From a virus (lineage: Duplodnaviria; Caudoviricetes), in the IMG/VR virus record IMGVR_UViG_3300033518_000149, positions 1-30,522 of that record: a stretch of 30,522 nt of DNA; one strand, written 5' to 3'. Numbering within the stretch: position 1 is the first letter of the stretch; the number at the start of each line of letters is the position of its first letter. Positions 2,366-29,207 of this stretch are shown piece after piece. A program made the position numbers and the translations under genes. The notes under the pieces were generated by a model. That model saw only the letters and a program-made list of their open reading frames with translations, was not told where the DNA came from and searched no databases.

Positions 2366-2507
2366 ATAATTTATTTTTTATGTAATCTACTAAAATTTTT
2401 TCCACAAACCTAGCTATTTTAAGATTTTCTTTATCACAATAATTTTTGATTTGTTGGTAGGAATCATCTGGGAGAGTTATGGTTCGTTTAATTTTTGTTG
2501 GGGTCAT
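2352..2507 (-). CDS. Small ribbon-helix-helix-like protein (51 aa)
   Basis: Not in the ORF track. MTPTKIKRTITLPDDSYQQIKNYCDKENLKIARFVEKILVDYIKNKLYEQK shares Q.K.YCD...LK....VE with 1252..1389. It overlaps both the HNH stop and the GT C-half start. Confidence 0.65.
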   Translation of the reverse strand: MTPTKIKRTITLPDDSYQQIKNYCDKENLKIARFVEKILVDYIKNKLYEQK

Positions 2508-3126
2508 ATTTTTTATTTTTATTTCTATTCCCTATATGGTTTGTATATCCAAAATTTTCAGCTATTTCTGTTGTTTTAAATAGTGGTTGTAAATTGGTAT
2601 AATGAAAACATTCTTTCTGTTGGTCCAAATATATTAAATCAAACAAAGCACATGGTTTGATATGATCTATTTCCCAAACAATGGCGTGATTTTCCCATAA
2701 CATTTCAGGTAGAAATTTTGATTCTATATAGTTTTTTAAAAATTCTATAGTACAACCTGTTAATTTAAAAGACGATTCATATTTTCTAACACCTTGAGCT
2801 TTTAATTTTCCTTTTAAAGTGTTTCTTAAATTTAATTTAAGTTTAAATATAATATCATTTTTATATTTCTGTTTATTATATTCATTTACTTTTTCTTTAT
2901 TATCTTGAAACCACTGTTTAGAATAACTTTTAATATTTTCCTTATTTTTTAAATTATATTCTTTAATTTTCTCTAAAATGGTGGATTTGTTAGATTCATA
3001 TCTATTTTTATTATAATCTTTGATATGTTCTTTCTTTAAATTATTATACTCTTTATTACATAATTTACACATATATCTTGTAGAATATTTTTCAAATAAA
3101 TTACCACATTTATTACATTTTATCAT
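2488..3126 (-). CDS. HNH homing endonuclease inserted in the glycosyltransferase gene
   Basis: CxxC pairs and WEIDHIKPC...FHYTNLQPL...GNRNK. Start moved to ATG 3126 (MIKCNKCG), downstream of the promoter motif. Confidence 0.8.
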   Translation of the reverse strand: MIKCNKCGNLFEKYSTRYMCKLCNKEYNNLKKEHIKDYNKNRYESNKSTILEKIKEYNLKNKENIKSYSKQWFQDNKEKVNEYNKQKYKNDIIFKLKLNLRNTLKGKLKAQGVRKYESSFKLTGCTIEFLKNYIESKFLPEMLWENHAIVWEIDHIKPCALFDLIYLDQQKECFHYTNLQPLFKTTEIAENFGYTNHIGNRNKNKKYDPNKN

Positions 3127-3175
3127 ATTATATTTTATTATACATATGATAAAAAGCATTCAAAGTCATGCTTTT
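3118..3175 (-). promoter_or_regulatory. Promoter-like motif with start-codon-sequestering hairpin
   Basis: Perfect 11-bp inverted repeat TTTTATCATAT/ATATGATAAAA covers the HNH ATG. ATATGTATAAT lies at 3137-3147. A second 8-bp repeat is at 3152-3175. Confidence 0.6.
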
Positions 3176-3714
3176 GCATCTAAATCTATAAAAGGAATAT
3201 CATCTAATACCAGCTTATTAACTAATTTTGTTTGTTTAGAGATAGCCATTAACAAATCACAACTTTCATAGAACGATTTATTATATAGTGGGGCAGGCAT
3301 ATCATCCCATATTTGTAAATAAATTATAGGACATTGTTTTCTAATTTCATTTTCCATAGCAAATAACCACTCAAACATGCGGGGGTCCGTTATAAGCATA
3401 ATAGCATCTGGTTTTTCTAATTGTAACATTTGTCTTATAATGTCAGGATTACCATAACCATCAACAGGATATAAAAATACAGATGCATCTTCTATACCAG
3501 CATTTGTGTTTGTATCTGCTGATAAATCAAAACGTTTACCTTTTTCGGGGTGATTGATTGCTCCCGCTACATTTACCCAATTGAAATGATGTGCTGTGTT
3601 TATAACCATTTCTCTTCCAACACAAGCCACCCCAGAATGGACCCTTATATCATCACATATAAGAAGTATTTTTTTACGTTGTTCTTTAGGTAAATAACCA
3701 AATTTTTTATTCAT
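3166..3714 (-). CDS. GT4-like glycosyltransferase, N-terminal half of a split gene
   Basis: KILLICDD...SGVA...EKPDAIML...WDD...DLLMAISKQT is a GT-B N-terminal domain that stops just before the YVPHG strand. Confidence 0.8.
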   Translation of the reverse strand: MNKKFGYLPKEQRKKILLICDDIRVHSGVACVGREMVINTAHHFNWVNVAGAINHPEKGKRFDLSADTNTNAGIEDASVFLYPVDGYGNPDIIRQMLQLEKPDAIMLITDPRMFEWLFAMENEIRKQCPIIYLQIWDDMPAPLYNKSFYESCDLLMAISKQTKLVNKLVLDDIPFIDLDAKA

Positions 3715-3968: not shown

Positions 3969-4397
3969 TTATATTATATTTATAAGATATTCTTTTGCTA
4001 ATTTATAATTAGGATTCTTTACTATTTGTTTTATCTGGTGTCCACTTAAAGGGATATCCTTACTATTAATTAAAATGTTTAGTGAAGAATATATTTTTCC
4101 ATTATATTCTACTTTATTTGGGGTTCTTTTAGATATTTTAAATATTTCTCCAATTTCCCACTGTTCTAAAGTAGTTATAATCTCTTTATTTTGTAGAGGA
4201 TGACCCTCTGCTAATAGTTTTTCAATCCAATATGTTTCTTTATCATAAAAGATGTCTAAAATTTTCATTTTTATATCATATCTCCTCAAATGAGATACAT
4301 GATCATAGAATCTTGACTTTGGGCGAGATGATTTACCAATATAAAATATTTCATTTTTATTATCTAACAACCCATATATGTATACTTTAGTCCCCAT
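3969..4397 (-). CDS. Short GIY-YIG endonuclease
   Basis: VYIYGL...FYIGKS...RFYDH...E motif, preceded by ATATGTATAAT at 4420-4430. Confidence 0.7.
   Translation of the reverse strand: MGTKVYIYGLLDNKNEIFYIGKSSRPKSRFYDHVSHLRRYDIKMKILDIFYDKETYWIEKLLAEGHPLQNKEIITTLEQWEIGEIFKISKRTPNKVEYNGKIYSSLNILINSKDIPLSGHQIKQIVKNPNYKLAKEYLINII

Positions 4398-12018: not shown

Positions 12019-12019
<1 letters not shown>
11783..12019 (-). CDS. Hypothetical protein coupled to groEL
   Basis: 78-aa ORF whose start overlaps the groEL stop (TAATG). Confidence 0.6.
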
Positions 12020-13665
<1,646 letters not shown>

Positions 13666-13971
13666 TTAAATTGATTTTACTCCCGTTAATACTTGTTTTT
13701 CTGATCCAACCCAATAATCATCTCCATTGTGTTCGAATTTTGTGAAACCCATTGTAGGTAAAATCACTTGTTCTCCAACTTTAATAGATGTTGGGATAAA
13801 TTCACCAGTAACTGTATGCGCTCCAGGCCCAACAGCTACTATAGTTCCATGAACATTCTTATCTTTTCCCATGTCCGGGACAATAATAGAACCATATTGG
13901 GTTTCCTCAATTTCTAAAGGTTTTACAATAACCGCATCAAAATACGGTACTAATTCTGATTGTTTTTCCAT
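13666..13971 (-). CDS. groES: Co-chaperonin GroES
   Basis: P..D.VIV, GSIIVPD mobile loop, GTIVAVGPG, IKVGE; directly upstream of groEL. Confidence 0.93.
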   Translation of the reverse strand: MEKQSELVPYFDAVIVKPLEIEETQYGSIIVPDMGKDKNVHGTIVAVGPGAHTVTGEFIPTSIKVGEQVILPTMGFTKFEHNGDDYWVGSEKQVLTGVKSI

Positions 13972-15525: not shown

Positions 15526-16233
15526 TTATTCTTTATATTCCCAAATAAAACCTCCAGCTAATTTTTGTTTTCCTGAAAGGCACCCAGCTATATCTCCAGG
15601 TCCTAACTATTTTTTAGCTTCTGTTCTACTAGACTATTCTTTTATAAAATTATAGGATTGGTCAAATTGAAGGATTGGTTTTTTATTTCTAGATATCCCT
15701 TTACTTCCTTTACTTATATTTTGTTTGTGTTGTTCTGTTTTAGGTACGTCTTTTAATTTTTCCCCTACTGTTGGTTTTGATATACCTTTAGTAGAATTAC
15801 TTATTTTTTGATTTCTTTCTTTACTTTTAATTTTATCTCCAAAATCTAAAGGTCGTTTTACTCCTTTAGGATAACCTTTTGTACCCATCTTTCTATCAGA
15901 TATTTTCTTTTTAGTTTCTTCAGATAAAGGACCACCCCCAGTATCATATAAATTACAAAATAAAACTTGTTTCCAATCTCCCCCCACTTGATCAAGATAA
16001 TATTGTTTCCAATATGTTTCTCTTTCATTTAATTGTTCTATAGAGCATTCTTCTATGACTTCAAATATATGTTGTTCAAATCCATACTTCTTAAATGAGT
16101 TTGTTAAAATTGGACCTATACTATTTTTATATGAATTGAAATAAAAATATACTCTTTTTCTTGATTCTATATTAACACTTTGTCCAATATATGTTTTTCC
16201 TTTAGGGTTTGCTATTTTATATATTCCTACCAT
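15526..16233 (-). pseudogene. GIY-YIG homing endonuclease with two in-frame TAG codons in the C-terminal NUMOD1-like module
   Basis: MVGIYKIANPKGKTYIGQS; the frame continues FIKE*SSRTEAKK*LGPGDIAGCLSGKQKLAGGFIWEYKE* to TAA at 15526. Close paralog of 4487..5293. Confidence 0.75.
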
Positions 16234-16266: not shown

Positions 16267-17145
16267 TCAAAAATTATAGAATTTATTTAAATATGGGTTT
16301 AGATTTAATTGCCAGCTTAGATCATTATATAAATTCTCTAATTTATTTCGCATTACACCATCAAATAAACCTTCTCTATCGATATATTTGTTTACTATCT
16401 CTATTATTTCTGGGGCGTCATTATATCCATTTAGTCCTATAACATCTATCTTGTATGGGTTAGGTTTTAAGTAAGCAATATACATTTTATCTCCAATAGT
16501 GAATTCGGGGTATTTTTTAGTTAAATTTTTAAATTTTAAGATATCATTTGTTATGATAGCTGCTTTAGTATTGATTGGGCATTTTTTCTTCAATTTGGAA
16601 AACAATTCACCAGCCATTGGTTTGCGTTCTGTATATTCAGCTATTTTCTTTAGTCCAGTTGGTTTAAGCAAATCTATCCAATCTACTGTTGCAATTGATT
16701 TTTTAAAGTCCATTACAAATTCATCAATTTCTGCTTTTGGTTTGGAGAATAGAATATTTTCTATCAACTGCTTTCCAAAGTTTCTAAAGTATGGAGGGAA
16801 ATTGGATTTCATAATATCCAATCCTTTCATATCTAGTTCCTCAATGGATATACCTTCTTTATTTACAATATACATTGCATATCTACGCTTACCCGACCAA
16901 TATGCTTTCTCAGCTATAACTTCTTGTTTAAGTTCAAAGTGGTGTTCTGATTGTATGTTGAAAAATTCTTTCGATATAGCTGTGAGATCATAATTTGCTC
17001 TTTCTTGGATTTTGTCTGTAAATTTTAAAAGTATTTTTATTCTTTCTTCTCGAGGTATAGAATCAATATTAGGGTATATCTTTTCAAGAAGTTTTGTAAG
17101 TGTGAAGTATGCGCTATCAGTATCAGACGCGATAACATGTTTCAT
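16267..17145 (-). CDS. Family B DNA polymerase, C-terminal part (motif C palm and thumb)
   Basis: Starts MKHVIASDTDS; FELKQE, KRRYA, KGLD..KS. The ATG overlaps the HNH stop (ATGA). Confidence 0.92.
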   Translation of the reverse strand: MKHVIASDTDSAYFTLTKLLEKIYPNIDSIPREERIKILLKFTDKIQERANYDLTAISKEFFNIQSEHHFELKQEVIAEKAYWSGKRRYAMYIVNKEGISIEELDMKGLDIMKSNFPPYFRNFGKQLIENILFSKPKAEIDEFVMDFKKSIATVDWIDLLKPTGLKKIAEYTERKPMAGELFSKLKKKCPINTKAAIITNDILKFKNLTKKYPEFTIGDKMYIAYLKPNPYKIDVIGLNGYNDAPEIIEIVNKYIDREGLFDGVMRNKLENLYNDLSWQLNLNPYLNKFYNF

Positions 17146-17963
17146 ATGGTAAATTTTGGTTTATTTCTATTTCCTATACGATCAATATACCCAAAAGATT
17201 TGGCTATATCACTGGTTTTGAAGAGAGGTTGCATGTTTGTGTAGTGGAAACATTTCTTTTGTTCTTTTAAATCCTCTAGATTAAAATTAACACATCCTAT
17301 AATATGATCTATCTCCCAAATACATCCATGATTTTCCCAATTCATTTCCGGAGTGAATTGTTTCTCTAAGTATAGTTTAAATTCCTTAATAGAACAATCT
17401 AAAATTTCGATAGAGGATTCATTTTTCCATTCATTTTTAATAGCACTATGCAGTCTATTTCTTAATAAAGTAAGTATTTTAAATTGCGGTTCTGTATGGT
17501 AACGTTCTAATTTTCTTTTTTGAAATTTTTCTTTGTGTTTTTCTTGATATTCTTGGTGTTTTTTCTTATTTGATGGTTTGGAATATCTATCTGAGTTTTT
17601 ATTATATTCTTTCACACAAGGAATGCATTTATTTTGATAACCATGAACTGCTTTTTTGTCGGGATAAAATTCTGTTTTTTGTTTAATCTCCAAACATGTG
17701 TTGCATTTTTTTAGATCTTTATATTTTTCTTTTAAATATTCCCATTTTGGAGCATATTGTTCCTTTAATATTTCAAAGGTACCATTCCTTTTACATCTCA
17801 TATAATCTGCCCAACAGGATTTACAATAAGATGTTTTAGAGGATAATTCATGTGGTTCTTTCTCTTCAACACACAACACACATCTTTTTCTTTCCCCATC
17901 TTCAGAATACTTTATAAGATCAATGTTATGTGTATATGTTTTTCTATTTTGTGTTTTGTTCAT
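17142..17963 (-). CDS. HNH homing endonuclease inserted in the DNA polymerase gene
   Basis: Four CxxC pairs and WEIDHIIGC...FHYTNMQPL...GNRNK. Probable start at ATG 17963, after the promoter motif. Confidence 0.8.
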   Translation of the reverse strand: MNKTQNRKTYTHNIDLIKYSEDGERKRCVLCVEEKEPHELSSKTSYCKSCWADYMRCKRNGTFEILKEQYAPKWEYLKEKYKDLKKCNTCLEIKQKTEFYPDKKAVHGYQNKCIPCVKEYNKNSDRYSKPSNKKKHQEYQEKHKEKFQKRKLERYHTEPQFKILTLLRNRLHSAIKNEWKNESSIEILDCSIKEFKLYLEKQFTPEMNWENHGCIWEIDHIIGCVNFNLEDLKEQKKCFHYTNMQPLFKTSDIAKSFGYIDRIGNRNKPKFTI

Positions 17964-17994
17964 ATCTATTATTTTATTATACATATACACAAAA
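17954..17994 (-). promoter_or_regulatory. Promoter-like motif with start-codon-sequestering hairpin
   Basis: TTTTGTGTATAT/ATATGAACAAAA pairs at 11 of 12 positions and covers the ATG. ATATGTATAAT is at 17976-17986. Confidence 0.55.
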
Positions 17995-18007
17995 TCAGTC
18001 TCCTTTA

Positions 18008-19885
18008 TCAAATTCCAAAAACACTTTTAAGTTCTTCTATATCCATTTCTAGATATTCGTCTATCATATCGTTTATACCATCAATACTAGCTTTAACTAA
18101 TCTCTGTCCACTGTTTGTAATAGCGGCTGAGCATATTTTAAATCCATCTGTAAAGCGCCAAGAATTAATTGCATATGTACCGTATAAAGCGTTTTGCAAG
18201 ATTTTAAATGCCATTTGATACAAGTCATATAGCTTATAGTTTTCCCAATCCTCGGCTTTACCTGCTTTGCTCTTTAATCCCCGATAGTGGTTTCGTTGAT
18301 CGAACCAATCCTGTAATACCTCACACGCTATACTTTTAATATCTGTTCTAAAGAAAGCACCGCTGGCTGAAACTGACCAATTATTATCCTCAATTAATTT
18401 AACTAAATTACCCAAGGATATTTTAGCCTCTTTCAACATATATGTTTTCTTGTTTAGCTTTTGTATATGAATTATTTCCTCGGGATTACGTTTCTTTAAT
18501 TGCTCAAGTGAATTATACTGTTCATAGTTATCTTTTGTAACTATTCTTCCCACTAGAGTTTCTATACCTAAATTAAGGGATTTGATAATAGAGGGATATA
18601 GTGAGGTAAAATCCAAATCGGATACATCAGAATATAGTCCTGGTTTAGGGTCTAGCAAATATCCACCAGCGTATGATTCTTTCCGGCGTATTGTTTTTAT
18701 ATTTCGATAAAGCATATGACCCGACATAGTTCTGATTACTACATCTTTTTCTTTAAATGAATGAACAAAACCCTCAATTGTAGGTGTACCCCTTTGATTG
18801 ATTATGTGATCATCTATCTCGATTTCTCGAATACTTGGGTTTGTTGTGGTGGGTTTGTTTGGAGCAACTATACCTTTACGCTTTAGATACGTTAAAATAG
18901 CACCTTCGTTTAAAGTTGTATTATAGTAAATAGATTCATATGGAGTATGACATAGATGTGAAATCAATACGGTTAATTCGATAAATTTCAATTTCTCCTC
19001 TAAAGCCTCTAATATCTCAACGTCTCGAATATTATAGTCGATATATTTGTCTTTATCTTCTTTAAATAATGTATCTAAACTACCATTGTACTCTATTTTA
19101 CCTAATTTAGCGTATTTTATCCCAATATCGCCTAATTTATATGATGGTTCTTCTTTAGCTATATATTTTTTCAACAAAAGCATATAATCTAAACTATTAA
19201 CTAAACCAATCCGAATTGGAGAATTACCATTAGATAAATTTTCAGTTATTTTACCAATTGGAGATAAACGTAAAACTTCATCGCCCAGTATTTTTTGGAT
19301 ACGATAGTAGATATATGGAATATCAAAGAAATCTGAATTGTAGCCTACAACCATAGTTGGGTCCATCTGTTCCCATTTGCTTAGAAATTTTCGTACAAGA
19401 GTTTTTTCATCTATACAAGGGATAACTGTTTTTCCATTTGCTGTTATCTCTTCCATTAGATTTTCTTTATCTAATATGAAACATATTTTTTCCTTAGTTG
19501 ATATATCCATTAAAGCAATAGCTGTAATTTCTGCGTTTGCTTCTCTAATAGTATATGGTGTAAGTGCCCCTAGAATTTCAATCTCAATATCCAGATAAAC
19601 TAGATTGTGATATGAGGGCATATCATCTGTTTGATAATATAAATCTCGAAGTAAAACTAATTCACGGTCAATATCTTTTTCAAATATGGTGGGATCTTTC
19701 TTATCGTATTTACCTTGAAATGGAGAACAAGAATCCCCGAAGAGATTCTTATATTCACCATATTCATCCAATTTGTAGAGTGTAGGCCAATATTGGAAAC
19801 AGCTAATACCTTTTTGATCATCCCTCAAGTAATAATGATATTGATCCTCGCCAGGTTGACGATTGTAATGAACTGCTTGAAACAT
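18008..19885 (-). CDS. Family B DNA polymerase, N-terminal part (3'-5' exonuclease, motifs A and B)
   Basis: LDIEI, GYNSDFFDIPY, YNIRDV, DFTSLYPSII, KILQNALYG, ITNSGQ; stops before DTDS. Confidence 0.95.
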   Translation of the reverse strand: MFQAVHYNRQPGEDQYHYYLRDDQKGISCFQYWPTLYKLDEYGEYKNLFGDSCSPFQGKYDKKDPTIFEKDIDRELVLLRDLYYQTDDMPSYHNLVYLDIEIEILGALTPYTIREANAEITAIALMDISTKEKICFILDKENLMEEITANGKTVIPCIDEKTLVRKFLSKWEQMDPTMVVGYNSDFFDIPYIYYRIQKILGDEVLRLSPIGKITENLSNGNSPIRIGLVNSLDYMLLLKKYIAKEEPSYKLGDIGIKYAKLGKIEYNGSLDTLFKEDKDKYIDYNIRDVEILEALEEKLKFIELTVLISHLCHTPYESIYYNTTLNEGAILTYLKRKGIVAPNKPTTTNPSIREIEIDDHIINQRGTPTIEGFVHSFKEKDVVIRTMSGHMLYRNIKTIRRKESYAGGYLLDPKPGLYSDVSDLDFTSLYPSIIKSLNLGIETLVGRIVTKDNYEQYNSLEQLKKRNPEEIIHIQKLNKKTYMLKEAKISLGNLVKLIEDNNWSVSASGAFFRTDIKSIACEVLQDWFDQRNHYRGLKSKAGKAEDWENYKLYDLYQMAFKILQNALYGTYAINSWRFTDGFKICSAAITNSGQRLVKASIDGINDMIDEYLEMDIEELKSVFGI

Positions 19886-21217: not shown

Positions 21218-21853
21218 TTATAAATCCTTTCCATTTTTAGATATAGCGTGTAAAAATTCTTCTCGGATCATGTTATTTGATTCCATAAATACTCCACTGA
21301 ATTTATTAGTAGTCATAGTGGATGTTGGATGTTTGATTCCTCGATTTGAGCAACACATATGCTTAGATGATATACTTACTGCTATTGATTCGCATTCTAA
21401 TTTTTTAGTTAGAAAATCGTGAATTTGTTGTGTAAGGGATTCTTGCATTTGAGGTCGACGGGAAAACCAATCCACCACTCTATTTAATTTAGATAAACCT
21501 ACAACTTTTTCTCCGGGGACATATGCTACTGAGGCGTATCCTGTGAATGGGAGATTATGATGGGCGCACATTGATATAACAGGGATACCGGTTTGGATAA
21601 CTATTCCTGTGTAATTTTCTTCATTAGGAAAAACAGTCATGGATGGTTCTTCGGTAATAGAACCTAATATAAGATCCTTTAACCATGCTTTTGAAACCCT
21701 TCTTGGAGTATCAATAGTTTGTGGGTCTTTTGTATAATCAAAACCCATAGATAAAAGGAATTTACCATAATGTTCTGATGCTTCTGTGATCATGTTTTCA
21801 ATCTCCTCACTAGTTCGAGGAGAATTTTCATTTGATTTGTTAATGTATTTCAT
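21218..21853 (-). CDS. folE: GTP cyclohydrolase I
   Basis: DTPRRV, SMCAHHNLPF, VGLSKLNR, RRPQMQE.LT, HMC...RG. Confidence 0.95.
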   Translation of the reverse strand: MKYINKSNENSPRTSEEIENMITEASEHYGKFLLSMGFDYTKDPQTIDTPRRVSKAWLKDLILGSITEEPSMTVFPNEENYTGIVIQTGIPVISMCAHHNLPFTGYASVAYVPGEKVVGLSKLNRVVDWFSRRPQMQESLTQQIHDFLTKKLECESIAVSISSKHMCCSNRGIKHPTSTMTTNKFSGVFMESNNMIREEFLHAISKNGKDL

Positions 21854-24153: not shown

Positions 24154-25011
24154 TCAAACATATCTATTTTTACCAAACATCATAATATGTAATCTAGGGC
24201 AAAACCTCCATCCTCGTTTAATTGCTTGTTCTGCAATCCAACCAGTCCTTGAATTTAAAGTATTCACATCAACTCCTTCAGGCATCAAACATATATCTGA
24301 GGGTTCCCATCCTTCTAATTGGTTTAAAATTTCTTCAATTTCTATAATATCTTGGTCTGTAGCTACTACAAACTTTAGTTGGCAATCATTAAAACCGGAT
24401 ACTTTATTATTTAAGAATGATTGGATAACAGGGATATTAATTCTGTCTTTTTCATGCTTTTTAGCCCATTTTTCACTATATTCAATCCCTGTTTCTTTAA
24501 GATTAGGTTTATGAGGAGTTGAAGTAGATAATTTAGGGGACATTGAAACTAAATCAGTATTCAAACTTATTTTTTCTGAGTATATGGTTGCATTAGTTTC
24601 AATAGTTGTATGGTATCCTAGTTTTTTTAATTTTTCTAAAAGTTCTTCTAAAGCTTCAGTTTGCATTGTAGGTTCACCTCCAGAAATTACAATATGTTTA
24701 ATATTTTGATCTTTAGTGTTTTTTATTACTACCTCTATAATATCATCTACCTCCATTTTATTTTTTTCAGGGTTATGAGATGAATATGGGGTATCACATG
24801 GTGATCCTTTTCCATCTAAACCTACCCAGGCACATCGCAGATTACATGCTGATGTACGGATAAAAAGACATGCTGTTCCTGTTAGTTTTCCTTCTCCTTG
24901 AAATGTGGCGGCACAATTAAATCCAGTCCCATCTTTTTGGTGGGGTAATCTATTCCCTTTCCCATCGTGAGTTATGGGGAATATCCCTCCTTTAACTAAG
25001 TTAATTTTCAT
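24154..25011 (-). CDS. queE: 7-carboxy-7-deazaguanine synthase (radical SAM)
   Basis: TFQGEG, FIRTSACNLRC...CDT, ISGGEP, IETN, SPKL, KFVV, PRLH; lies near queD, queC and folE. Confidence 0.92.
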   Translation of the reverse strand: MKINLVKGGIFPITHDGKGNRLPHQKDGTGFNCAATFQGEGKLTGTACLFIRTSACNLRCAWVGLDGKGSPCDTPYSSHNPEKNKMEVDDIIEVVIKNTKDQNIKHIVISGGEPTMQTEALEELLEKLKKLGYHTTIETNATIYSEKISLNTDLVSMSPKLSTSTPHKPNLKETGIEYSEKWAKKHEKDRINIPVIQSFLNNKVSGFNDCQLKFVVATDQDIIEIEEILNQLEGWEPSDICLMPEGVDVNTLNSRTGWIAEQAIKRGWRFCPRLHIMMFGKNRYV

Positions 25012-25025
25012 AATTTTTATTAAAT

Positions 25026-25682
25026 TTATTTATTATTTCCTCTTCCTCTAAGGGGAATGTTATTTTCAATTATCCTTCTTCTAATCATAGGTACACTTGT
25101 ATTAAATATCCTAGCAATTTCGGGTGTATTCAACCCACCTTTGTACATTTCTGTAATTTTAATAACATTTTCATCTAAATACGAATTTCTTTTGGTTGAA
25201 GGGTGGGATTGAAATCTTAAATATTGAGATTCACTTCCACTCCTTAATAAATCTTCACATATAATTCTTATAGTACCCTTATCACAATTATAAAATTTAG
25301 CTAATTCTGTAGGAGTGTAATTATTAAGATATTTAATTCTTATATCATTATAATAGTCATACCATAAATCTTTTCTAAAACAATGTTTATTAACCCCATC
25401 ACTCCCAGTATTGATAATATTATAAGTATTAGGACTATTACAATATTCCTCAGTTAATAGGGAGGATTCATATTCTACTGCTTTTTCTCTTGTATCGAAT
25501 GTTTTTAAAATTAATTTTTTAAAATTATCAATACCCTCAATTTCAATTACTTTTAATATGCAAGTACCACTTCCCATATATTTATCTTTTTGTGGGTTGG
25601 GATGAGTTCTTACACCTATATATTCTTTTTGATTTTTAAGGTTTACTATTTTATAAACATAATGTTGATTGTGTGTTCCCAT
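25026..25682 (-). CDS. GIY-YIG (Seg-like) homing endonuclease with C-terminal HTH-like modules
   Basis: YVYKIVNLKNQKEYIGVR, YMGSG, TYNI; C-terminal TELAKFYNC and EIARIFNTS helices. Confidence 0.8.
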   Translation of the reverse strand: MGTHNQHYVYKIVNLKNQKEYIGVRTHPNPQKDKYMGSGTCILKVIEIEGIDNFKKLILKTFDTREKAVEYESSLLTEEYCNSPNTYNIINTGSDGVNKHCFRKDLWYDYYNDIRIKYLNNYTPTELAKFYNCDKGTIRIICEDLLRSGSESQYLRFQSHPSTKRNSYLDENVIKITEMYKGGLNTPEIARIFNTSVPMIRRRIIENNIPLRGRGNNK

Positions 25683-25727
25683 ATAAGTACGATTTTACTA
25701 TACATATGTAGGAACCTTAAAAGTTCC
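25675..25727 (-). promoter_or_regulatory. Promoter-like motif with alternative hairpins over the start codon
   Basis: GTTCCTACATA/TATATGGGAAC pairs at 10 of 11 positions and covers the ATG. GTTCC can instead pair with upstream GGAAC. ATATGTATAG is at 25698-25707. Confidence 0.55.
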
Positions 25728-25729
25728 AA

Positions 25730-25831
25730 CTAATCTCCTTGAAATGTTCCTGAATATTGGAACCCTGTAGAGTTATTTTCTAGATTATCTTTTATAGGGA
25801 ATATTCCTCCTTTTACTAAATTTAATTTCAT
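25730..25831 (-). pseudogene. queE: Stranded queE 5' stub (33 codons)
   Basis: MKLNLVKGGIFPIKDNLENNSTGFQYSGTFQGD* vs intact MKINLVKGGIFPI...TGFNCAATFQGEG; similarity ends inside the Glu codon of QGEG. Confidence 0.9.
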
Positions 25832-26161: not shown

Positions 26162-26392
26162 TTATTTATTTGGTTTAACAGTTATCGTATATTTTTTAGT
26201 ATAACTAGAATCCTCGTTTTTTACTAACACACCTAACACGGGATTAAATGCGTTCGAATCAAACATAATTGGTGTAATGGCAACGTTTAAGTTGGAGTTT
26301 TCTAAAGCAACTTTAATTTGTTGAATTATTGACATCTCATTAATTTCTAATTCCATATGGTCTTTATTGTTGTTGTTTATTTTATTCTTCAT
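26162..26392 (-). CDS. Hypothetical protein
   Basis: ORF overlapping the queD stop; exact start uncertain. Confidence 0.5.
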   Translation of the reverse strand: MKNKINNNNKDHMELEINEMSIIQQIKVALENSNLNVAITPIMFDSNAFNPVLGVLVKNEDSSYTKKYTITVKPNK

Positions 26393-26846
26393 AACTAGCT
26401 GAGTTTCTTTCGTGTTCATATACCTCTACTTTAATAGCTTTAATTCTATTATCTGTTTCATTTGATAAAAAATCATTAATAGTTTTATAAAGATATTCTG
26501 CAAATCTTTCACAACCCACACTATCCATAATTCTAAGTTGGATGATTCCATCTTCATCCATTTGTTTAAATTTTTCTAAATATGGATCATCTTGTGATAT
26601 AATTGTAGTATGATCTAGTAAATATGTAAAATAATCTTTTGGAGACATACCATGTATTTTATTTTTTGCACGCTTCATTCCCCCAAAATCAAATACCCAG
26701 TTACGGTGATCTAACTCACCCTCAAACCATACTCGAAATGATACTGCATACCCGTGCAGGAATTTACAATGTGTATCTTCTGCTCGCCATTGACGAAAAC
26801 AAGTTGAGTATCCATCAAATAATTTTGTTGATTTAAATTTTCTCAT
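26382..26846 (-). CDS. queD: 6-carboxytetrahydropterin synthase
   Basis: HCKFLHGY, WVFDFG, LDH, GCERFAE, VEVYEH..NSA. Confidence 0.9.
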   Translation of the reverse strand: MRKFKSTKLFDGYSTCFRQWRAEDTHCKFLHGYAVSFRVWFEGELDHRNWVFDFGGMKRAKNKIHGMSPKDYFTYLLDHTTIISQDDPYLEKFKQMDEDGIIQLRIMDSVGCERFAEYLYKTINDFLSNETDNRIKAIKVEVYEHERNSASYEE

Positions 26847-26971: not shown

Positions 26972-27820
26972 TTACCCTCTGGAGAGTTCAAATTCTTCAC
27001 ATATTTTAATAACATATTCTTTTACAAAATCCCAACTTACTAAAGTTCCATCATCATCAGCATATTGAGAAGGATCTTCTAAACCTAATTTAATAAAGGA
27101 TTCAATACGTTCAATACTTGAACCAGATTTATAATCACTTACCCATTCTCCATTACTTAATTGAATTGGATTATAACTTGTATTTGTTCTAGAATATATT
27201 TCTTTATAATCCAAACCCATAGATTTACATTTAATAATTCCATCTTCCAAAACACCTGTTTTATCTGTAATATTATATGGTGCGTAATAATCTACTTTGT
27301 CTGAATCCCAATTCCCAATTTTAAATGCATGTTCTAATGCTATACGGAATTCTTCTGAGCAATCTGGGTATATTCCGGTTTGTTCTTTATTGTTAAAATC
27401 ACCCATGTGTGTTCCCAGGGCGATTTTACATGGTTCCCCAGTACGTTTAACTACAGATAAGGCCACTGCATATGTTATTGCAGCAAATATAGCATTTCTG
27501 TTTGGAACTACTGTTGTTAGTGCGTTTTTATGAGCATAATGACCTTTTTCCATCTCCATAGAATCATTATCTATTAAACCACTCACCAATAAATTAGATA
27601 AACCATCCAAAGTTATTATTTGATGTTTTAAATTATATCCTTTATCTTGAAGATATTTTATAAGGGATTGGGCCCGTTCAAGTTCTACACTATGTTTTTG
27701 ACCATATGAATATGATAAACATATTACTTCATGATCTGTATTTAAAAGATTTAGTAAAAGGGTAGAGCTATCTAAACCACCACTTAAAGATAATACTGCA
27801 TATTTATTTTGTTTATTCAT
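26972..27820 (-). CDS. queC: 7-cyano-7-deazaguanine synthase, variant lacking the Zn-binding cysteines
   Basis: SLSGGLDSST, YGQKH..E, TVVPNRNAIF, YPDC..EF; C-terminal TSY...DYKSGSSIER replaces SCY...CxxCxxC. Confidence 0.92.
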   Translation of the reverse strand: MNKQNKYAVLSLSGGLDSSTLLLNLLNTDHEVICLSYSYGQKHSVELERAQSLIKYLQDKGYNLKHQIITLDGLSNLLVSGLIDNDSMEMEKGHYAHKNALTTVVPNRNAIFAAITYAVALSVVKRTGEPCKIALGTHMGDFNNKEQTGIYPDCSEEFRIALEHAFKIGNWDSDKVDYYAPYNITDKTGVLEDGIIKCKSMGLDYKEIYSRTNTSYNPIQLSNGEWVSDYKSGSSIERIESFIKLGLEDPSQYADDDGTLVSWDFVKEYVIKICEEFELSRG

Positions 27821-28415: not shown

Positions 28416-29207
28416 CTATACCTCTAGAAATTTCTTAAACATTTTTACATTATGATATACTAAATCTACATTAATATCATCAATAGAAATATTTGAACAA
28501 CTATTCATGTTGGGAATTGGTTTTTCATGTAATCCATTAGTATATTTGATATTATCAATTGCAGCCATAATTGGATTGGACGTATCAATTGATTCGATAC
28601 ATTCAATGTTTTTATACATAGGGAATTCAAAAACTCCAGCAGTTCCAAGTAAATGCACACGATCAAATTTAGTTAATATTTTTTGTTCGTATAAAGATGA
28701 AAGTACAATAAAACGTCCAATTGCTTTTCCAAGATCTTTATTTGGGTGTGGACATACCTCATTATAGTAAGAGGCACCATATGAATATGCTATTTTCTTG
28801 TATCCTAGATCTTTATATGCTTTTGTACAAAGTATAGTCTCATGCATTGATTTTGCTTGCACTACCACAACTTTAGTTACCTCTTTAGGTAGTTCAACAG
28901 TTGCCCATTGTCTTGCATTTCTAACTGAAGCATCTTTATCTTCCCATACATCTGGAATAAAGACACATTCTGGTTTTAGTATATTGATCCATTTAAGGAG
29001 GATTTCTCCTCCAATAGCATATCCTTTTTCATGCAAGCTATTATCTAAATAGATAGGGATACCTTCATCTCTACATTTAATAAAATGGTTTCTATATTCT
29101 TCATTTTCTTCTAAAAGATGAACCAATGCATATTGGTAGTCGCAAAATTTGAGACTATTTTCCAATAAACAAAAAGGAACTTCATGACTTATAAGAATTT
29201 TTTTCAT
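28416..29207 (-). CDS. TGT-fold protein, probable DpdA-like 7-deazaguanine transglycosylase
   Basis: Motif order YLDNS, IPDV, VVQ, VHLLG, SIDTS matches the TGT barrel. No C-terminal Zn motif of tRNA TGTs is visible. It heads the queC-queD-queE block. Confidence 0.7.
   Translation of the reverse strand: MKKILISHEVPFCLLENSLKFCDYQYALVHLLEENEEYRNHFIKCRDEGIPIYLDNSLHEKGYAIGGEILLKWINILKPECVFIPDVWEDKDASVRNARQWATVELPKEVTKVVVVQAKSMHETILCTKAYKDLGYKKIAYSYGASYYNEVCPHPNKDLGKAIGRFIVLSSLYEQKILTKFDRVHLLGTAGVFEFPMYKNIECIESIDTSNPIMAAIDNIKYTNGLHEKPIPNMNSCSNISIDDINVDLVYHNVKMFKKFLEV

Follow-up and report, generated by a model that had tools for sequence, protein, structure and literature searches.

Apart from introns and inteins, end-replacing homing elements are treated as a third and considerably rarer category in a 2026 preprint (bioRxiv 10.64898/2026.08.13.744650). 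WHO elements of Torulaspora and Lachancea yeasts home into FBA1, where cleavage has been shown (PMC7282813; bioRxiv 10.64898/2026.08.13.744650), and gene hybrids produced by mobile endonuclease ORFs have been described in fungal mitochondria for atp6 of Allomyces macrogynus (Paquin 1994, as cited) and for atp6, atp9, cox2 and nad3 of Glomus (PMC3630166). No phage description of start replacement with a stranded stub was found in the literature searched, which consisted largely of freely accessible papers in their main text. In the locus analyzed here, a splice-free mobile cassette composed of a GIY-YIG endonuclease gene and a foreign queE start is very probably inserted in the 5' end of a phage queE gene and likely spreads by homing.

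The window, by which the whole analyzed stretch of DNA is meant, is a single contig of 30,522 bp with 29% GC, almost every gene of which is encoded on the minus strand. It encodes a family B polymerase, a clamp-loader-type ATPase, GroEL/GroES, folE, queD, queE, queC and many free-standing nucleases and looks like part of a large phage genome; related IMG/VR viral contigs have sizes of up to about 168 kb. All features of the cassette locus are on the minus strand. A queE stub of 33 codons (25730..25831) consists of the resident queE start (25831-25734) and a stop codon that comes from the cassette. The cassette spans 841 bp (24893..25733) and comprises a promoter-like motif of the ATAT[GT]TATA type (25698..25707), which lies 25 nt ahead of the nuclease start, the gene for a free-standing GIY-YIG endonuclease of 218 aa (25026..25682) and a replacement queE 5' end (24893..25011), which forms codons 1-40 of the complete working queE (24154..25011; resident body, 24892-24154). 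The host gene is one open frame of 285 aa without splicing. According to sequence comparison, a 14-bp block, ACATTTCAAGGAGA, is identical at the stub end (left copy, 25747-25734) and in codons 36-40 of the working queE (right copy, 24906-24893); the copies are 841 bp apart, and the cassette boundaries can slide by up to 14 bp (24907-25747).

The sequence-only reading of this locus had described a 33-codon stub upstream of the nuclease, followed by a complete queE with a diverged start 7 residues longer, and a break of similarity inside the QGEG motif. These observations were borne out: the stub occupies 25831-25730, the working start is 20/39 identical to it at the protein level with 39 residues up to QG versus 32 in the stub, and the 14-bp block is followed by divergence in the Glu codon of QGEG. 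The working start also has Ala for Gly three residues before the Gln of this motif. At the DNA level, 33 of the first 39 nt are common to both starts in addition to the 14-bp block. The stub was matched by a QueE query in a tblastn search of the window (E 4e-06); across the 49 ORFs of the window that were tested, no other gene had such a duplicated end close by, nuclease-associated paralogues aside, and no further stub-plus-replacement cassette was found in the 30,522-bp window. The GC content of the carried start is 0.40, versus 0.29 for the stub and 0.32 for the body. Because the 841-bp insert lies inside one contig of one sequencing run (possibly the source run) and recurs unchanged in another IMG/VR record, which is probably of the same genome, a local assembly error is unlikely.

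Alleles that lack the cassette were found in two sequencing runs from different studies. One contig each in runs X3 and X5 joins 24895 to 25737 and omits exactly 841 bp, as anticipated by the earlier suggestion that empty alleles would begin with the stub sequence; no joint was seen in the other two runs examined, X1, which may be the source run, and X2, which yielded short pieces only. Compared with the window, these contigs differ at 4/113 and 4/124 bases on the stub side and at 46/738 and 41/738 bases in the body, and the preservation of the stub at the level of the coding body indicates that the insertion is recent. Among 18 viral QueE loci, one is the source genome and another is truncated; the remaining 16/16 encode 278-aa proteins with a short, stub-type start. 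The cassette is therefore patchily distributed, as it is missing from close relatives (the 16 short-start loci and the two contigs), and no empty allele with a long start, which would have pointed to ordinary duplication and decay, was seen in this set.

The origins of the two starts were compared by identity and by separate trees for the start and the remainder of QueE. By spacing pattern, the best 120 of 3,251 protein matches include 89 with a stub-like start and 3 with a start like the working one, the rest being 20 with other spacings, mostly more distant proteins, and 8 that could not be parsed. The QueE body after QG is 234/246 identical to those of P0001 and P0002 and 230/246 to that of P0003, and the starts of these three proteins are 31/32 identical to the stub but only 22/39 to the working start. 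The closest matches to the working start among the same 120 are P0061 (29/39), P0042 (28/39) and P0038 (26/39), the bodies of which are 67-73% identical to the window QueE body. In trees of 42 of the 120 proteins, picked by hand, the window body joins P0001-P0003 (SH-aLRT 99), whereas the working start, in a tree of only 39 columns with long-branch warnings, falls outside a group of 33 short starts that includes the stub (97/89). Judged by these conflicting trees and identities, the working QueE is a chimera of a foreign start on a resident body, and the stub is the resident queE start. Together with the empty alleles, this supports the view, put forward in the sequence-only reading, of a mobile unit made of the nuclease and a foreign queE 5' end. 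The window QueE and the nearest empty alleles have Thr44, where P0061, P0042 and P0038 have Ile, so that the foreign part of the window queE ends between codons 36 and 43. These three long-start proteins form three separate branches of the body tree, the P0061 body is 85% identical to a short-start body, so that they may be chimeras too. Among the viral contigs, a degenerate pattern for long-start loci matched the source genome only, and a protein search with residues 10-50 returned no candidate. No close queE was found among GenBank phages (174 records, all under 60%), and pattern, protein and nuclease-alignment scans of viral and metagenome loci did not retrieve a second filled allele of the window's QueE lineage (lineage A).

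The cassette nuclease is matched by the Pfam model SegE_GIY-YIG (28.6 bits versus a cut-off of 25) and by a PHROG homing endonuclease profile (E 1e-23). In an alignment of 60 of its 69 homologues, it keeps the family-invariant Y10, Y21, G23, R25, Y35 and N88 and the near-invariant E72, and these conserved Tyr, Gly, Arg, Asn and Glu residues are presumably of the catalytic type. Another nuclease, P0122, is 67% identical to it. The predicted structure (pLDDT 86.8) has a beta-rich N-terminal domain, which corresponds to the SegE-type domain, a flexible linker at residues 92-100 and short helices thereafter. The C-terminal module, with a weak match to HTH_17, HTH families on many relatives and short-helix repeats in the model, resembles a helical HTH-like repeat region. 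A profile search of the PDB returned no solved GIY-YIG relative and one helical-repeat protein only. The ORF has its own start and stop, lies outside any intron or intein and has no credible Rfam match; these features suggest that the enzyme is likely a free-standing, Seg-like GIY-YIG homing endonuclease. The ATAT[GT]TATA-type motif, a pattern selected post hoc after the motif had been seen, has 14 matches in the window versus 2.8 expected, of which 13 are on the coding strand. It stands ahead of most nuclease genes in the window and of several others, and a looser form precedes 23 of 25 family nucleases; from these positions, we infer that it serves as a promoter. A hairpin over the nuclease start was no more stable than shuffled sequences (z -0.94). 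Elsewhere, at least eight free-standing nuclease genes were counted in the 30.5 kb, with GIY-YIG genes at 3969, 4487, 8014, 15634 and 25026 and HNH-like genes at 594, 2488 and 17142. Three of the GIY-YIG genes share 71-75% DNA identity, and the gene at 15634-16233 has an early stop beyond which homologous sequence continues.

Based on this arrangement, a possible route of spread is proposed. The nuclease is predicted to cut cassette-free queE alleles near the QGEG codons, and during a mixed infection the break in the recipient would be repaired from a cassette-bearing donor. The right arm would pair in the conserved TFQGEGKL codons, and on the left the recipient would pair with the donor's stub. 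The recipient's own queE start would then become the new stub, while the carried start would rebuild the gene. Because all sequence beyond the junction is missing from the stub, and the carried start diverges beginning 15 bp ahead of the junction, the cleavage site would span the junction, and the donor would be immune, with the whole site in neither copy of the start. The promoter-like motif of the cassette would drive the nuclease gene and probably queE behind it.

Relatives of the nuclease were collected by scanning with its alignment, which gave 21 viral and 21 metagenome loci; the family set comprises 25 loci, once 6 distant partial matches had been dropped and 11 duplicates collapsed. 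Seven distant, mostly partial matches that do not count as family members (L022, L041-L043 and L063-L065) are 27-51% identical over about 60-100 aa, and their downstream gene, where visible, is not queE. Within the family, the gene following the nuclease is queE in 21/21 loci with visible downstream DNA, the other 4/25 ending at or shortly past the nuclease. These loci involve three QueE lineages with different breaks: in lineage A, that of the window, the break lies in QG|E, in lineage B after Phe/Leu-Tyr, about three codons before the Gln, and in lineage C (L040) six codons past the Gln. By the patterns used, 8 of the 25 loci have a clear stub (window included), 5 a short remnant and 12 neither, although one of these 12 has only 8 bases of upstream DNA. 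The lineage-B junction falls at the same Phe/Leu-Tyr codons in L031, L033, L035, L048, L053 and L054, and in a tree of 75 lineage-B bodies the presence of the cassette changes at least nine times. Two pairs of loci are informative about the stub. L035 and L054 differ at 3/800 cassette bases versus 5/46 stub bases (Fisher p 2e-05), L031 and L048 at 7/700 versus 5/34 (Fisher p 1e-04), and the DNA upstream of the cassette is unrelated within both pairs. Near-identical cassettes with far more divergent stubs are as expected if the recipient's start becomes the stub, which is the prediction of the WHO model.

Some further features of these loci were observed. The nucleases of L031 and L048 have near-identical N-terminal parts but C-terminal parts of different length (285 vs 228 aa), and their replacement starts differ too, which suggests that the DNA-binding tail and the carried start could have been swapped together. 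In L024, L028, L030-L032 and L048, a short conserved palindrome follows the junction just upstream of the promoter-like motif of the nuclease, even without a stub; this lineage-B palindrome is possibly an operator or a terminator. In L005 (3294-3980), a different GIY-YIG-like gene directly precedes a lineage-A queE with a short start and no stub.

The codon three before the Gln of QGEG, a motif that we take to be substrate-binding in QueE, is altered in a number of the carried starts. Among 119 lineage-A proteins, it encodes Gly in 115, Ala in three long starts and Cys in one, and the window working start has Ala. In lineage B, Phe is found in 9/16 cassette-linked alleles versus 0/60 empty alleles, the empty set being drawn from the best 80 of 290 matches to one query; 7/16 cassette-linked alleles keep Tyr. 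This Tyr/Phe codon changes at least seven times on the tree, and an independent-pairs test gave only 4 supported pairs with p 0.25-0.5. It is possible that the altered codon in carried starts represents an immunity change. In the yeast WHO work, a similar variable residue adjoins the active site of the aldolase (bioRxiv 10.64898/2026.08.13.744650). A broader reading, held tentatively and doubted somewhat more than believed, is that the nuclease family may be specialised on queE as a 5'-end mirror of WHO, with a start-replacing cassette re-founded in at least three distant QueE lineages, the stub renewed from every recipient, and an arms race forcing changes (Gly to Ala, Tyr to Phe) at a near-constant codon beside the QGEG substrate loop. 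If so, the family would spread rare QueE starts over unrelated gene bodies, and would do so in a pathway that likely modifies guanines of the nuclease's own target DNA.

Other origins of the arrangement were weighed. The main alternative is the scar of a single event, in which an ordinary nuclease gene upstream of a donor's long-start queE arrived by a homologous join in QGEG on the right and an illegitimate join on the left, the stub being a by-product and not a working arm. Such an event would account for the missing stub or remnant in 12/25 family loci and for the stub-less lineage-A queE behind an unrelated GIY-YIG gene in L005, and the failure of the scans to find a second filled lineage-A allele would fit a single chance event in the window. 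However, the junction of lineage B is fixed in the six loci named above, stubs are far more variable than cassettes, and the window stub, like the carried start, keeps the 14-bp block up to its end, so that this explanation appears unlikely. Since the breakpoints differ between the QueE lineages, each lineage needed a founding event of the one-off type, and a one-off illegitimate join probably explains the origin of each lineage's cassette.

A self-splicing intron or a ribosomal bypass could in principle join the stub to the queE body and make the second start incidental, and the stub does end in Gly-Asp-stop beside a small hairpin, a combination in which we see a faint resemblance to the T4 gene 60 take-off site. 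Yet the nuclease ORF and the second start occupy 776 of the 841 bp and leave no space for a ribozyme, the single Rfam match (E 0.16) is far below threshold, the hairpin region is no more stably folded than shuffled sequences, and the downstream queE by itself forms a full open frame that begins with an ATG, all of which makes this possibility very improbable. A group I or II intron or an intein was rejected, as there is no ribozyme core, the stub is closed by a stop codon and the nuclease ORF is read in a different frame. The least credible account is a tandem duplication of the queE start followed by divergence and by insertion of an unrelated nuclease between the copies. The 33/39 first nucleotides and the 14-bp block common to both starts are what duplication would leave, but it is the divergent copy that is expressed, whereas the dead stub is about 97% like relatives, counterparts of the long start occur naturally on distant bodies, and taking out exactly 841 bp restores a natural allele. 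Duplication is refuted by the empty alleles, the identity of the stub to relatives and the conflicting trees.

The target gene itself belongs to a small set of neighbours in the window. The working QueE has QueE as its best NCBIfam and PDB matches, below curated cut-offs, and a PHROG QueE-like match (E 2e-51). Nearby on the minus strand are queD (26382..26846; Pfam PTPS, NCBIfam QueD below cut-off), queC (26972..27820; Pfam QueC E 1.5e-28, NCBIfam below cut-off) and folE (21218..21853; Pfam GTP_cyclohydroI E 3.9e-51). The phage set for dPreQ0 DNA modification is given as FolE, QueD, QueE and QueC together with DpdA in its description (PMC6884629), and the first four are encoded in the window. 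The minus-strand ORF at 28416..29207 is a possible divergent DpdA (DNA-guanine transglycosylase), a weak call with two weak leads: an Atlas score of 0.95 to a cluster set in which DpdA makes up 17% and a profile match to PDB 7ui4 (E 0.027); no Pfam or NCBIfam match was obtained for it. The statement in the sequence-only reading that the target is a DNA-modification gene is accordingly likely but indirect: the presence of folE, queD, queE and queC agrees with it, whereas the DpdA-like gene remains a weak call. From this gene content, queE likely serves DNA modification.

Several other observations concern these and other genes of the window. The ORF at 28416-29207 belongs to a large viral family with 933 representatives at an E value of 0.001 or lower. 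Its members frequently neighbour queC, Asp55, His185 and Gly188 are invariant in them, and the family is possibly an undescribed DpdA class. QueE residues 56-72 have an unusual cysteine spacing (Cx3Cx11C), and in a lineage-B QueE (L037:2919-3755) about 35 residues separate the second and third cysteines. The family B DNA polymerase is encoded in two minus-strand ORFs (18008-19885 and 16267-17145) split by an endonuclease VII/HNH-like gene (17142-18011); the split falls immediately ahead of the DTDS motif, neither a duplication nor an intron being visible, and a two-chain polymerase is a possible outcome. A glycosyltransferase is seemingly split in the same strand (3166-3714 and 1445-2365) by a related HNH-like gene (2488-3159), and similar short ORFs (about 2373-2495 and 1252-1419) border HNH-like genes, the first immediately downstream of one such gene and the second immediately upstream of the following one. 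GroEL and GroES are phage-encoded at 12019-13971 on the minus strand.

Among phage systems, the "intronless homing" genes of the Seg/Mob type in T4-like phages resemble the cassette in the SegE-type GIY-YIG domain, in the lack of an intron or intein, in the occurrence of several genes per genome and in having their own promoter upstream (PMC2988022). T4 seg genes are intergenic, and the sites that they cleave are hundreds or thousands of bases distant (PMC2988022), unlike the cassette, which is embedded in its presumed target and leaves the gene start in two copies. T4 MobA in gene 60 and Aeh1 MobE in nrdA likewise place a phage nuclease in a conserved coding region without splicing (bioRxiv 10.1101/2022.08.31.505936, PMC2988022), and what the MobA element brings along is a short, diverged homologue (about 15 aa) that replaces the removed region (bioRxiv 10.1101/2022.08.31.505936). 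However, MobA and MobE split a protein into two working chains that reassemble, MobA with ribosomal bypass (bioRxiv 10.1101/2022.08.31.505936, PMC2988022), whereas at queE the protein is restored as a single full chain, the piece left upstream being a stub that repeats the start. The locus is not a gene-splitting element, as the downstream queE is whole and its beginning is present a second time in the stub.

Design features of terminus replacement that are present at queE are a foreign carried end, a displaced end like that of empty relatives, and one rebuilt frame. In the WHO studies, a comparable combination appears: next to a free-standing nuclease stand a chimeric host gene of full length and the recipient's old gene end, stranded as a fragment, without splicing, with discordant trees for the two gene parts; there too, the stranded fragment is proposed as a recombination arm, as in the model for queE. 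Resistant WHO alleles are altered next to the active-site motif, to which the codon three before Gln would correspond at queE. In contrast to WHO, which replaces the 3' half of FBA1, the queE cassette replaces the first 40 codons and must therefore supply the start codon region and probably a promoter as well. The WHO nuclease is an HO-related LAGLIDADG protein with a zinc finger, versus GIY-YIG-HTH at queE; its setting is the yeast nucleus and meiosis, versus phage co-infection; it forms tandem clusters, none of which was seen at the queE cassette; and its cleavage has been demonstrated, whereas that of the queE cassette is predicted from sequence. With a GIY-YIG nuclease and the queE 5' end in place of the FBA1 3' end, the cassette does not belong to the WHO family. 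In the mitochondrial reports, too, a nuclease gene imports a foreign gene end, the displaced native end matches an empty relative, and trees place the foreign ends and the native ones in separate clusters, although the C-terminus is affected in organelles, compared with the N-terminus in phage.

With exact empty alleles and a survey across the family, the locus makes a clear phage example of end replacement, one that involves the other gene end and an unrelated nuclease fold, and it suggests that the strategy is general and convergent. The locus would link selfish nucleases with the way in which a pathway protecting phage DNA from restriction enzymes evolves, and it provides a warning that phage queE trees include chimeric 5' ends. 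The cassette also constitutes a small testable system, with one 218-aa enzyme and three natural substrates. The queE cassette works like WHO elements and mitochondrial gene hybrids but, differing from them in nuclease, host, target and gene end, is a member of neither: end replacement, already described in yeasts and fungi, occurs here in a phage and at the opposite end of the gene.
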